The notes: generated by a model from the letters alone, not told the origin. 64,000 nt of DNA from Kofleriaceae bacterium (GCA_035715365.1 DASTLB010000022.1:272242-336241), one strand, 5' to 3'. Counted from the stretch's first letter, positions 9,209-14,714 are shown. A program made the numbers and translations.

Positions 9209-10384
9209 CTACACGGCGGGATCGGCCTGGGGCGGCCAGGTCACCCCGCCGGGAGTACGTGCCACGGCGTACGTGATCTGGTGCGCCTCGGTCGGATCGG
9301 GCACGGACCACTTGCTCAGCATGCGGTCGATCACCGCGGCCGGGACCCGATCGTTGGACCTCGAACGATTGCGCTGCATTTGTTCGCCAGCTGACGTCTC
9401 GCAATAGACGATGTGCGTTCGCGCTCGGTACGACCGGAACAGCGCGAGCAGCTGGCCGCGCAGCTGCGGCGACAGGTTCGTTGCGTTCCACGCGAACGAC
9501 TGGCCCGCGCGCAGGTAGGTCCGGGCCTGCTCGCGCGCGCGTGCGATCACGTCCGCCTGCGAGTCGTCCGGGTCGACGTCGAGCTCGCTGCGCAGCTCGT
9601 CGAGCGAGATCACCGGCAGCGCCGGGCGATGCTCCCGCAGCCACGTGTCCTTGCCGCTCGCCGGCAGGCCGGACATCAGGACCGCCTCGCACGTCGTGTC
9701 GTCGTGGACCGGCGCCTCCGGCGGGCGCGTGCCGCCCTCGAAGTACAGCCGGCGCGCGTGCTCCGACGCGAACCGCGGCGGCCGGTCGAGCACGCCGAGC
9801 TCGCGGCAGTGCTCGCCCCACAGCGCGCAGTGCTCGACGATCTTCGTGCGGTCGGCGGGATCCGCGCACCGCCGGCCACGGCCATCGGCATCGGCGACCG
9901 CGGTCAGCCAGTCGTGGCGCGTCACGAACGCGAGCCGGTGCGCGAGCCGGACCGCGTCGGCCTCGGGCTTCGTGATCCCGAAGAACGGCACCTGGTGACT
10001 GCGGACGAGCGCGCACACGTGCTCGCGGATCGCGAACGGCACGTCCTGCCGCCACAGCGCGACCCGCGTGATCGTCTCGCCGCGCAGCGAGTGGCCGCGC
10101 GACGTCCAGCGCTCGCCCTCGAGCCGGGTCGTCGACGGCTTGCCGATGTCGTGCAGCGCGACCGCGGTCGCGACGATCGTCTGGCCGACCGGATCGAGCG
10201 CGGCGTAGCGCGCGCCGTCGACGAGCGCCTCGAGCGCGAGCACCGTGTGGGTCCAGACGTCGCCCTCGGCGTGAAACCCGGGATCCTGGGGCGTCGCCTC
10301 GAGCTCGGACGCCGGCACGATCGGCGCGAACCAGGCCTCGACGGCGGCCCAGTCGATCGCGGCGCCGGGCGCGAGCGTCAGCAC
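9209..10384 (-). CDS. Bifunctional polynucleotide end-healing enzyme: N-terminal HD-domain phosphoesterase plus C-terminal P-loop 5'-OH polynucleotide kinase (HD-Pnk type)
   Basis: HD motifs are present ('FHAEGDVWTH', 'ALHDIGKP'). The C-terminus has the Walker A 'MSGLPASGKDTW' of the AAA_33/PNK kinase family. The start is placed at GTG 10384, 18 bp after the ligase stop. The longer ORF extension overlaps the ligase gene in another frame and is Arg-rich junk. Confidence 0.7.
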   Translation of the reverse strand: MLTLAPGAAIDWAAVEAWFAPIVPASELEATPQDPGFHAEGDVWTHTVLALEALVDGARYAALDPVGQTIVATAVALHDIGKPSTTRLEGERWTSRGHSLRGETITRVALWRQDVPFAIREHVCALVRSHQVPFFGITKPEADAVRLAHRLAFVTRHDWLTAVADADGRGRRCADPADRTKIVEHCALWGEHCRELGVLDRPPRFASEHARRLYFEGGTRPPEAPVHDDTTCEAVLMSGLPASGKDTWLREHRPALPVISLDELRSELDVDPDDSQADVIARAREQARTYLRAGQSFAWNATNLSPQLRGQLLALFRSYRARTHIVYCETSAGEQMQRNRSRSNDRVPAAVIDRMLSKWSVPDPTEAHQITYAVARTPGGVTWPPQADPAV

Positions 10385-10401
10385 GCACCGAGCATGGCAC
10401 G

Positions 10402-11199
10402 TCAGCCGAACAGGTCGACGCCGTCCGCGAGCCGGTTCGGCACGATCGGCCGGTTCAGCCAGTGCGAGCCGGAGTCGACGACCGCGGTCAGAAACGACGC
10501 GCGGATCCACTTGTAGCGCGCGACCACGACGCGGCTCGCCGGGTCCTCGACCTTGACGTAGAGGCCCTCGGCGAGCTCGCTCGGATCGGTCTCGCGCGCC
10601 ACGCGCTCGGGATCGACGCCGGCGGCGACCGCGGCGTCGCGCAGCCGGTCGCGCCAGCGTTCCGACTTGTAGAGCGAGCGCGCGACGAGCGTCGGCAGCT
10701 TCGCCGGCCGCTCGACGACGCCCTCCCAGATCACCGGCACCGAGACGATTGGCGCGCCGGCGAGGTGCTCGCGCCGGCGCTCGGTCGACCAGAACGCGCC
10801 GCTGGCATCGCGGATGTCGAACTCCATGAAGTAGTGCGGCAGCTCGTCGTAGAAGATCGTGTGCTTCGCGTACAGCCACTCGCCGTACAGCGTCAGCCCG
10901 CCCGCGACGAGCTCGGACAGCCGCGCCTCGTGGGTGCGCGCCCACTGCTTGTAGAGGTCCCAGTGCTTCTCGCGCGCGCCGCCGACGAGCACGTGGCCGC
11001 GGCTCTGCAGGCGGAGCCGGCCATCGTCGTCGAGCGCCATCCCGGCGTTCGCGCCGTCGAGCTTCTCCTCGATCACGCAGTACGCGCCGGCGAGCGTCTC
11101 GAGCGGCACCTGATCGAGGTCGTGATCGCCGGGCTGCAGCCGGCTGCCCGCGAGGTGATGCGTCCGCGGATAGCGATGGATCGGATCGTTCGCGCTCAT
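10402..11199 (-). CDS. ATP-dependent RNA ligase (Rnl-type covalent nucleotidyltransferase)
   Basis: 265 aa. Motif I is 'EEKLDGANAG' (KxDG adenylylation lysine), motif IV-like is 'EGLYVKVED', and motif V-like is 'KWIRASF'. The size and motifs fit minimal bacterial or phage RNA ligases. Confidence 0.8.
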   Translation of the reverse strand: MSANDPIHRYPRTHHLAGSRLQPGDHDLDQVPLETLAGAYCVIEEKLDGANAGMALDDDGRLRLQSRGHVLVGGAREKHWDLYKQWARTHEARLSELVAGGLTLYGEWLYAKHTIFYDELPHYFMEFDIRDASGAFWSTERRREHLAGAPIVSVPVIWEGVVERPAKLPTLVARSLYKSERWRDRLRDAAVAAGVDPERVARETDPSELAEGLYVKVEDPASRVVVARYKWIRASFLTAVVDSGSHWLNRPIVPNRLADGVDLFG

Positions 11200-12937: not shown

Positions 12938-13632
12938 GTCCGGTCGATCATACCACCGGCCGCGTAGCGCGTCGGATCCGCGAGCCCTGCCTCGACGAAT
13001 CCTTTGTGCCGCAACGAGCAGGCATCGCACCGCCCGCACGCGAGCCCCTCGACCGGGTCGTAGCAGGAGTGCGTCAGCGCGTAGTCGATCCCGAGCGACA
13101 TCCCGACCTTGATGATCTCGGCCTTCGTCAGGTCGATCAGCGGTGCATGGATCCGGAACCCGCCGGTGCGGGTCGCGACCTGCGCGAGCCCTTCGAACGC
13201 GCGCACGAACTCGGGCCGACAATCGGGATAGCCGCTCGCGTCGAGCACGTTGACGCCGAGGAAGATGTCGCGCGCGTCGATCGACTCCGCCCATGCGAGC
13301 GCGAGCCCGAGCAGCACGGTGTTGCGCGCCGGCACGTACGTCGACGGCACGTCGCCGGGCGCGCCGATCTCGGACATCGGGCGGTCCTTCGGGACCTCGA
13401 TCTCGGCGGTCGTCAGCGCGGAGCGCGCGATCGGGGCGAGATCGACGGTGACCACGCGATGCGCGACCGCGCCGAGCGCCTGCGCGACCCGCGCCGCGGC
13501 GTCGAGTTCGACCTGGTGCAGCTGGCCATAGCGGACGGTCAGCGCGTGACACGCGAACCCGTTCGAGCGCGCGAGCGCGAGCGTCGTCGTCGAGTCGAGT
13601 CCGCCGGACAGGAGCACCACCGCAGCTGGCAT
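12934..13632 (-). CDS. queC: 7-cyano-7-deazaguanine (preQ0) synthase
   Basis: 232 aa. The PP-loop '[12 protein letters not shown]' and the C-terminal zinc Cys cluster '[19 protein letters not shown]' are present. The product is full length. Confidence 0.9.
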
Positions 13633-13641
13633 GGGCGGAAG

Positions 13642-14714
13642 CTACCGCTTCGTGGTGTGGTCGGCGAGAAACCGCACGATCGCGTCGAGCGCGACCGGAT
13701 CGAGCGCGCGCCCCGCGGCGTTGTACGCGCGGCCCTCGACGCCGGGATCGAGCGCGTCGCGCGGCTTGGCCTCGTGCTTCAGCACGTGGTCGGCGTCCGG
13801 CGCGACGACGGCGGTGACGTCGGCGCCACCCTGCTTCGCCGCGGTCGCGAGCCGCGCGCCGTCCTCGGCGGGAACCTGGACGTCCTTGCCGCCGCTGACG
13901 ACGAGGATCGGCAGCCCGCGCAGCGTCGCGAGCGCGGCCGCCGGATCATACGCGTACAGCACGCGCACCATCGATGCCGACGCCGGGTTCACGATCGCCG
14001 CGATCACCGGCAGCGTCGCGTACTTCATCGGATCGATGTCCTTGCCGGCGAAGAACGCGTCGAGATCGGCGCGGATCGGCGCGAGCTGCGCGTCGACGAC
14101 GCTGTCGGCGATCCCGGCCTGCTTCGCCTGCGCGTGGCCGAGCTTCGTCAGCTGATCGAGCAGCACGTCCTTGATGGGCTTCGGCGCCGACGACAGCAGC
14201 AGCAGGCCGGCGATCTGCGCGCGCGCCTTCGCGGCCAGCCGGACCGCGTAGATCCCGCCCTCGCTGTGACCGGCGACGAACACGTGCGCCGGATCGACGT
14301 CGGGCCGCCCGTGCAGCAGCGCGAGCGCGGCCTGAGGCTCGGCCTCGACATCGTCGATCGTGATCGGCAGCTTCGCCGGCTTGTCGGCCGCGCCGGTGCC
14401 GAGCTTGTCGTAGCGCAGCGTCACGTAGCCGCGCGTGCCGAGCTCGTGCGCGAGCAGCCGCGCGCTGCCGTTCGTTCCCGGGATCAGTGGCGTCTCCCAC
14501 CGGTCGGCCCGCTGCCCGCGATCAGCAGCACCGCGGGAAACCGCCCCGGCGCGTCGGGCCGCGCGAGCGTGCCGTGCGTCTTGCGCGCGCCGGCGACGAG
14601 CTCGACGTCCTGTTCGATCACGCGATAGCTCACCGGTGCCTCCCGAGCGCCCGTGTCACGCGGTGCTGCATGCGCGCACGCGGTCACGAGCAACGTCCAC
14701 ACGAACGGCCGCAC
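13642..14714 (-). pseudogene. Secreted alpha/beta hydrolase interrupted by a frameshift near 14490-14500
   Basis: The N-terminal part (signal peptide 'MRPFVWTLLVTACAHA', then 'AVLLIAGSGPTG') runs 14714 to 14484 and ends in a stop. The protein continues in another frame ('WETPLIPGTNGSARLLAHELGTRGYVTLRYDKLG...GHSEGG...') down to 13642. This is consistent with a 1-nt indel in 'accggtgggagacg'. Confidence 0.5.

Follow-up and report, generated by a model that had tools for sequence, protein, structure and literature searches.

A three-gene cassette encoding a standalone methyltransferase (MT), an ATP-dependent ligase (Lig) and an end-healing enzyme of the HD-Pnk type was recognized on the minus strand of a 64,000-nucleotide (nt) stretch of DNA from a Kofleriaceae bacterium (GCA_035715365.1, DASTLB010000022.1:272242-336241; the whole stretch is termed the window below). 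The conserved unit, read in the order MT, Lig and HD-Pnk, is probably a variant, equipped with a methyltransferase, of the end-healing and sealing HD-Pnk/ligase module known from Runella slithyformis and Deinococcus radiodurans, and a healing-methylating-sealing mechanism is proposed for it. The window has a guanine-cytosine (GC) content of about 70%, and the gene set in question comprises six minus-strand genes at 9209-14714, whose domains had been assigned in an earlier reading of the sequence alone and were confirmed by Pfam and NCBIfam searches. That sequence-only reading had joined all six genes, including queC and a receptor for cyclic di-GMP (c-di-GMP), into one operonic system centered on RNA repair, and the comparative evidence upheld the three cassette genes as a healing-and-sealing assembly while separating them from the other three.

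The cassette was delimited by a survey of 95 loci, which consisted of 2 loci from genomes, 80 from metagenomes collected with a 12-sequence HD-Pnk alignment, 9 exact look-ups of MT homologs and 4 annotated plasmids; the genome scan, carried out with the single HD-Pnk protein, returned the 2 close relatives only. Gene arrangements in the first 85 loci were counted from profile searches of six-frame open reading frames (ORFs). Lig was found directly upstream of HD-Pnk in 48 of the 54 loci with enough upstream DNA; of the 43 loci evaluable for MT, 24 had it immediately before Lig, a count which takes in five loci with a split Lig match. By the same counting, QueC and the MshEN protein lay nearby in 6 loci and the hydrolase in none. 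Therefore, the associations between Lig and HD-Pnk and between MT and Lig are far beyond chance, while those of queC, MshEN and the hydrolase with the cassette are not, so that the co-occurrence across related genomes expected for the whole set stood for MT, Lig and HD-Pnk and failed for queC and MshEN, which are restricted to one clade, and for the hydrolase. Starting from MT instead, all nine look-ups, made with homologs 48-86% identical to the window MT or to a low-GC MT, displayed MT followed by an RNA_ligase gene and then by an HD/AAA_33 gene within otherwise unrelated flanks, and in these nine loci Lig began within ~12 nt of the MT stop or overlapped it.

The three-gene arrangement was encountered in Myxococcota, Chloroflexota and Acidobacteriota, and the labelled sources of the MT homologs include Kofleriaceae, the cultured Chloroflexota Ktedonosporobacter rubrisoli, Acidobacteria/Blastocatellia (including an Acidobacteria metagenome-assembled genome, MAG) and Ktedonobacterales. 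The MT-positive loci range in GC from 0.32 to 0.74, and identity to the window MT (44-80%) tracks that of HD-Pnk (38-74%) and of Lig (46-85%). When HD-Pnk was placed on a neighbour-joining tree, loci with and without MT were intermingled even among the closest relatives, as exemplified by locus L010, which is devoid of MT and is the sister of the MT-bearing locus L006. This pattern is most simply read as the repeated loss of MT from an old three-gene cassette, implying that MT is an accessory rather than an essential part, and its absence from about half of the cassettes indicates that the core reaction does not require it. No MT homolog was found on any PLSDB plasmid, as against 48 plasmids with HD-Pnk. 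The apparently new element disclosed by the survey is the standalone MT family, which is conserved across phyla, always sits directly upstream of the ligase, and has been lost in about half of the cassettes. No description of this family of ~215-230 residues was found in the accessible literature, although an earlier description is possible.

HD-Pnk (9209-10384, minus strand, 391 residues, GTG start) is one of the two core components and is composed of an N-terminal HD phosphoesterase and a C-terminal P-loop 5'-OH polynucleotide kinase. It was matched by Pfam AAA_33 (4.5e-25), HD (1.1e-4) and KTI12, as well as by the NCBIfam HDIG model, and belongs to a family with 442 representatives at E <= 1e-30 after 50% clustering, which were aligned over their full length. 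Across 43 diverse homologs, the HD metal ligands H38, H78, D79, H98, H130 and D167 and the kinase residues G239, G244, K245, D262, R265, R309 and R342 are invariant or nearly so, with D262 and R265 aligned to the catalytic Asp and Arg of CthPnk. When the family profile was compared with solved structures, L-seryl-tRNA(Sec) kinase (PSTK) was matched at 8e-18, the kinase domain of Clostridium thermocellum Pnkp at 6e-13, T4 Pnk at 1.4e-11, Pnkp1 at 8e-6 and mammalian PNKP at 1.4e-5. These matches place the kinase domain in the polynucleotide-kinase clade, as the sequence-only reading had supposed, and not among the nucleoside or gluconate kinases. In addition, HD-Pnk shares 31% identity over 93% of its length (E 2e-18) with the gene corresponding to DR_B0098 on the Deinococcus radiodurans megaplasmid pMP1, the HD-Pnk characterized in that species (PMC6300522), and it is, judged from these similarities, a predicted end-healing enzyme of the Runella/Deinococcus type.

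The second core component, Lig (10402-11199, minus strand, 265 residues), was assigned to the ATP-dependent ligases of PF09414 (RNA_ligase) with 106.7 bits (1.9e-30; cut-off 27) and contains the signature 'EEKLDGAN'. Every covalent nucleotidyltransferase motif among I, Ia, III, IV and V is intact, and an alignment of 47 sequences revealed as invariant E45-K46-x-D48-G49 (motif I), S66-R67 (Ia), G106-E107 (III), E211-G212 and K216 (IV) and R228-x-K230 (V), in which K46 is the lysine predicted to be adenylylated. Lig is 27-31% identical to D. radiodurans DR_B0100 over the full length, while no relative with a solved structure was detectable by sequence or by profile search.

MT (11196-11840, minus strand, 214 residues), the third and accessory component, is a class I S-adenosylmethionine (SAM)-dependent methyltransferase dedicated to the cassette, with Methyltransf_25 and Methyltransf_11 matches of ~3e-11. 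Its AlphaFold2 model, of high predicted local distance difference test score (pLDDT 95.6), displays a class I Rossmann methyltransferase preceded by a helical N-terminal extension of ~60 residues. The residues of the SAM-binding motifs (D70, G72, G74, D95 and D121) are invariant across the three phyla, and so are E139-x-x-E142-H143, the stretch P169...D173-x-N175-P176-x-H178, the motif H42-x-F44-K45 and the arginines R52, R75, R100 and R158. The ExxEH motif provides three of the four metal ligands in Hen1, and E139, E142 and H143 align with 'EVIEH' of CthHen1, with the invariant H178 following in 'DxNPEH'; ExxEH, however, also occurs in other O-methyltransferases.

The designation of MT as 'Hen1-like' in the sequence-only reading proved to be overstated. 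Against the Hen1 model TIGR04074, MT obtained 24 bits, where the cut-off is 340, and was aligned over model positions 224-397 only; it does not possess the N-terminal domain of ~230 residues with which Hen1 binds and activates its ligase, since only ~60 residues precede the core, and Hen1 was absent from the Foldseek top 50 for the MT model. Hen1 was weakly matched by 29 of 32 MT family members (best 5.5e-8), whereas the best curated match for all 32 was MftM (NF041255; best 2.9e-22, 75 bits, below its cut-off of 200), the mycofactocin oligosaccharide 2-O-methyltransferase, which methylates a sugar hydroxyl as Hen1 does; the genomic context of MT is entirely different, with no mycofactocin genes near it. 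Comparison of the MT profile with solved structures gave the sugar O-methyltransferases RebM (1.4e-10) and AtmM (6e-9), then CthHen1 (2.8e-8) and Arabidopsis HEN1 (8e-7). Membership of the Hen1 family was accordingly rejected: MT is below the cut-off, lacks the N-terminal domain, and does not have Hen1 as its closest structural or sequence relative. By these scores MT appears no closer to Hen1 than to the sugar O-methyltransferases, and its features fit a metal-assisted sugar-hydroxyl methyltransferase, with which ribose 2'-O-methylation would be compatible.

A mechanism in three steps may be proposed for the cassette. On the grounds of homology to characterized enzymes and of the intact catalytic residues, the HD domain of HD-Pnk would strip 2',3'-cyclic, 3'- or 2'-phosphates from a broken strand, and the P-loop domain would phosphorylate the 5'-OH, leaving 3'-OH and 5'-PO4 termini. 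Subsequently, MT would methylate the healed end before sealing, probably in a metal-dependent manner via E139, E142, H143 and H178; judging by gene context, motif and the weak similarity to sugar O-methyltransferases and Hen1, its likeliest target would be the 2'-OH of the 3'-terminal ribose, which Hen1 also methylates. Such a 2'-O-methyl group would make the repaired junction resist a second cut, a resistance to re-cleavage which has been demonstrated for Pnkp-Hen1 and Pnkp1-Rnl-Hen1 (PMC4411300). Finally, Lig, in the form of Lig-AMP on K46, would seal the 3'-OH/5'-PO4 nick, as its motifs imply. Joint synthesis of the three proteins and their action in a complex are suggested by the overlap between the MT stop and the Lig start, which is conserved, and by the closely following HD-Pnk.

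The pairing of ligase and HD-Pnk, and even its linkage to a methyltransferase, had been described before, and the novelty attributed to the window by the sequence-only reading was therefore overstated. The LIG/HD-Pnk cluster of Runella slithyformis (Munir & Shuman 2017; described in PMC6097658) resembles the window in possessing an HD-Pnk built from an HD domain and a P-loop kinase and in a genetically linked SAM-dependent methyltransferase; the latter is described as fused to a HIT domain and as forming, together with Tpt1, a two-gene cassette of its own that lies 152 nt upstream. Unlike this arrangement, the window MT is a standalone protein of 214 residues that overlaps Lig, and neither Tpt1 nor HIT was seen, the two methyltransferases being compared by description only. 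No HIT fusion occurred among the best 120 matches searched from a low-GC MT homolog. In the D. radiodurans operon DR_B0100 (LigB)-DR_B0099 (PARG-like)-DR_B0098 (HD-Pnk), a homologous ligase and HD-Pnk are likewise present and the ligase comes first, in contrast with the window by a macro/PARG-like gene between them and the absence of a methyltransferase.

Two further systems share the logic of the cassette rather than its parts. The Pnkp1-Rnl-Hen1 heterohexamer of Capnocytophaga gingivalis, like the window, distributes kinase/phosphatase, ligase and methyltransferase over three proteins, and its ligase and healing enzyme are co-translated; it is distinguished by a phosphatase of the T4-Pnkp type instead of HD and by a Hen1 of ~460 residues with an N-terminal ligase-activating domain (PMC4411300), and the Pnkp1 kinase is only distantly related to that of the window HD-Pnk (8e-6). 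Pnkp-Hen1 of the Clostridium thermocellum type also encodes healing, sealing and methylation together, and its kinase represents the second-best solved family for HD-Pnk (6e-13), whereas one Pnkp polypeptide unites its kinase, calcineurin-type phosphatase and ligase, the ligase belongs to another clade, and Hen1 has two domains.

Several observations weigh against the proposed healing-methylating-sealing cassette. MT is absent from about half of the cassettes, three close relatives of the window among them. The Runella LIG adenylylates itself yet sealed none of the 3'-OH/5'-PO4 substrates tried (PMC6097658), and mutants of D. radiodurans point to DNA repair (PMC6300522). Moreover, queC and MshEN overlap by 4 nt in this genome, as do MshEN and MT, so that co-expression is likely here, and a local functional link of queC and MshEN with the cassette may exist in this genome.

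The most serious rival, which is possible although rather unlikely, holds that the cassette is a module for the repair of DNA breaks, in which the 3'-phosphate/5'-OH DNA ends left by oxidative or radiation damage are healed by HD-Pnk and DNA nicks are sealed by Lig, as has been proposed for the D. radiodurans operon, and MT acts otherwise, for example on ribonucleotide-terminated or RNA-primed ends. It draws on the homology of the window HD-Pnk and Lig to DR_B0098 and DR_B0100, whose operon is radiation-induced and confers resistance to ionising radiation and mitomycin C, that is, to DNA damage, with DR_B0098 needed for ionising-radiation resistance and DR_B0100 reported to act as a DNA ligase when DR_B0098 and PprA are present (PMC6300522). 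The Runella HD-Pnk, too, is described as a DNA/RNA end-healing enzyme (PMC6097658). RNA as the repaired substrate, which the sequence-only reading had assumed, is thus not established. Against the DNA module stand the membership of Lig in the Pfam RNA_ligase family, the identity of only 27-31% to the Deinococcus proteins, the likeness of MT to enzymes that methylate sugar hydroxyls, while DNA has no 2'-OH, and the presence of RlaP, a gene family named after its association with RNA ligases (PMC12776372), in one MT-positive locus. The sugar-O-methyltransferase-like partner, the Pfam family of Lig and RlaP beside one cassette constitute three pointers toward RNA for the MT-bearing variant, none of which is decisive.

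A second alternative, which is considered improbable, takes MT not for an end-modifying enzyme but for a subunit that supports Lig structurally or activates it, comparable to the N-terminal domain of Hen1, or for a methyltransferase of a base, a 5'-phosphate or a protein. The failure of the Runella LIG alone to seal (PMC6097658) and the dependence of the ligase on Hen1 for activation in Pnkp/Hen1 and Pnkp1-Rnl-Hen1 (PMC4411300) would agree with such a subunit, as would the conserved N-terminal extension of MT with its invariant H-x-F-K motif and the conserved translational overlap of MT and Lig. On the other side, the invariance of the SAM-binding and putative metal-binding residues across phyla argues for catalysis, and roughly one cassette in two functions in the absence of MT. 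Within the favoured healing-methylating-sealing cassette, MT might itself supply what was missing from the Runella-type ligase in vitro.

The high conservation of MT directly upstream of the ligase and its occurrence in at least three phyla offer a concrete lead in this respect: what this ligase family is missing, be it a substrate or an activator, may be an RNA end that carries a methyl group, or MT as a protein. Should MT prove to be a 2'-O-methyltransferase, the cassette would represent a third, independently assembled system of 'repair with immunity' beside Pnkp-Hen1 and Pnkp1-Rnl-Hen1, and the question of RNA versus DNA for the HD-Pnk/ligase family would tip toward RNA.

Upstream of MT on the minus strand lie the two genes that had been counted into the system. 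The gene at 11837-12937 encodes a protein of 366 residues with an MshEN domain and an uncharacterised C-terminal half. PF05157 was matched at 3.7e-9 (36.9 bits, cut-off 23.1) and NF053729 at the borderline (38.5 bits, cut-off 38), and direct reading of the N-terminus revealed two 24-residue motifs at residues 2-25 and 31-54 with a 5-residue spacer, the first of which has K in place of R and A in place of G. On such motif evidence the protein may fairly be called a 'putative c-di-GMP receptor', and it is tied to the cassette by position alone. The queC gene (12934-13632, minus strand, 232 residues) encodes a canonical 7-cyano-7-deazaguanine synthase, which passed the housekeeping equivalog TIGR00364 with 193.1 bits (cut-off 150.3) and matched PF06508 at 1.3e-71; the PADLOC QueC model matched it far more weakly (7e-21), and a defence-type QueC-like protein was ruled out by the passed equivalog.

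Both genes are lineage-specific neighbours of the cassette. On the HD-Pnk tree, all six loci that carry queC and MshEN fall into one Kofleriaceae-like clade, with HD-Pnk at least 64% identical, and this clade also has common outer neighbours (PTR2 transporter, PMT_2 membrane protein, GGACT, DBI_PRT, FecCD and ABC ATPase), from which the co-occurrence is explained as the ordinary synteny of close relatives. Within the clade the spacers vary from 40 to 1300 nt, queC and MshEN being separated by ~42 nt in L001, ~100 nt in L006 and L010 and ~1.3 kb in L002, and MshEN and MT by ~100 nt in L003 and L004; L001, L002 and L010 show the order queC-MshEN-Lig-HD-Pnk without MT. Neither queC nor MshEN was found near the cassette in the other 37 evaluable loci, in the 7 MT-anchored loci outside the clade or in the 4 plasmid contexts, and no tgt, queD, queE, queF or other queuosine-pathway gene was present among the annotated neighbours. 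The juxtaposition of queC and MshEN with the cassette is therefore clade-specific and not part of the system, so that neither a single six-gene system with queC and a c-di-GMP receptor nor the link to queuosine or 7-deazaguanine chemistry proposed through queC was borne out.

Colicin E5 cuts Q34-containing tRNAs, which makes a bond between queuosine and repair conceivable, and two readings of this kind were weighed. In the wider one, which is very improbable, the co-transcription of queC and MshEN is functional in the Kofleriaceae clade, and the cassette repairs, and 2'-O-methylates at the junction, tRNAs of the queuosine family (Tyr, His, Asn and Asp) cut beside Q34 by colicin-E5-like anticodon nucleases, with preQ0 supply and c-di-GMP signalling coupled to the repair; more generally, the standalone MT would be a minimal 'immunising' methyltransferase, independent of Hen1, that arose on a separate path in the service of HD-Pnk/ligase systems. 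The weakest reading, a single five- or six-gene system that ties preQ0/queuosine chemistry and c-di-GMP sensing to repair, for instance of queuosine-position tRNAs cut by anticodon nucleases, is considered most improbable, since the three 4-nt overlaps from queC to Lig, the likely co-transcription here and the recurrence of the order queC-MshEN-(MT)-Lig-HD-Pnk in 6 related loci are outweighed by the plain synteny of those loci, their variable spacers, the housekeeping type of QueC and the absence of both genes from the examined cassettes outside the clade.

The organization of the locus itself was read as follows. Overlaps of 4 nt between start and stop, which had been ascribed to the gene set as a whole, are present at three of the five junctions, namely queC/MshEN (ATGA), MshEN/MT (GTGA) and MT/Lig (ATGA), while the hydrolase stop is separated from the queC start by a 10-nt spacer and the Lig stop from the GTG of HD-Pnk by an 18-nt spacer. 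It is probable that queC, MshEN and the cassette are co-transcribed in this Kofleriaceae genome. The GC content at third codon positions (GC3), obtained from codon-position composition, amounts to 0.90-0.95 in all six genes and equals that of the surrounding genes, which indicates real coding sequences without compositional sign of recent import; recent horizontal acquisition of the cassette was ruled out on this ground. Consensus promoter and terminator scans gave no informative signal in DNA of 70% GC, no Rfam family and no tRNA gene was found in the window, and PADLOC models yielded no match for HD-Pnk, Lig or the MshEN protein and generic matches only for MT and QueC.

The sixth gene, an alpha/beta hydrolase (13642-14714, minus strand), gave Abhydrolase and Hydrolase_4 matches over 13642-14424, and its N-terminal part, up to ~14714, lies in another frame. 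Reading both frames revealed a lipoprotein-type N-terminal signal (...LLVTAC...) and a single frameshift near 14510, so that the gene is either a pseudogene or an error of the MAG assembly. No hydrolase homolog was found at this position in any related locus; in L003, queC stands 36 nt from a divergent PMT_2 gene. The hydrolase is thus an unrelated insertion peculiar to this genome. In another member of the clade, L004 (4107-5906), the public gene call merges QueC and MshEN as one product of 595 residues; its QueC match is split over two frames, and the merger appears to be an artefact of a frameshift or of read-through and not a true fusion.

Variations on the cassette were noticed elsewhere in the survey. 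Unsupervised clustering of the other neighbouring ORFs detected no family in more than 9 loci, and the few families that reached such numbers correspond to the synteny block of the closest relatives of the window. In L093 (6699-8693), MT, Lig and HD-Pnk are followed by an ORF of 109 residues, a gene of 297 residues with the reversed order AAA_33-HD, and the RlaP (PF10127) nucleotidyltransferase, which together look like an extended repair island. The related loci L055 (5080-7988) and L060 (4962-7988) carry ~3 kb between Lig and HD-Pnk with same-strand ORFs of 411, 465 and 776 residues, and the MT-less close relative L010 (7387-7968) has a same-strand ORF of 194 residues in the same place; all of these are without Pfam match.

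The neighbours of the MT-minus pairs gave unrelated Pfam matches, comprising CbiC, beta-lactamase, GH46, epimerase, VWA, reverse transcriptase, Band_7 and kinase-NACHT. On Pseudomonas and Chondrinema plasmids the pair is annotated as 'RNA ligase family protein' and 'AAA family ATPase'. In L087, the P. aeruginosa plasmid NZ_OX638702.1, the Lig/HD-Pnk pair is located between two identical IS21 copies, and in L071 (4890-6137), L058 (6178-7071) and L061 (3214-6114) such pairs adjoin reverse transcriptase, Band_7/SPFH or protein-kinase-NACHT genes, so that the pairs of these four loci are found in mobile or conflict-type surroundings.

Past the cassette, the intergenic region 8882-9208 of the window contains a conserved small ORF of 32 residues at 8968-9066 (MSVSSAGCKVGVGTIAAALAALSMAVLGHFFI*), which is situated on the same strand ~140 nt beyond the HD-Pnk stop. 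The hydrophobic peptide has no Pfam or Rfam assignment. Variation among TGC, TGG and TGA on the opposite strand corresponds to a synonymous Gly change on the minus strand, which indicates that the small ORF is coded on the minus strand. Just upstream of it the local GC falls to 0.43. Its C-terminus, 'CKVGxGTxAAALAALSMAVLGHFFI*', is nearly invariant in the window and in 9 Kofleriaceae-like loci, with DNA 71-80% identical.

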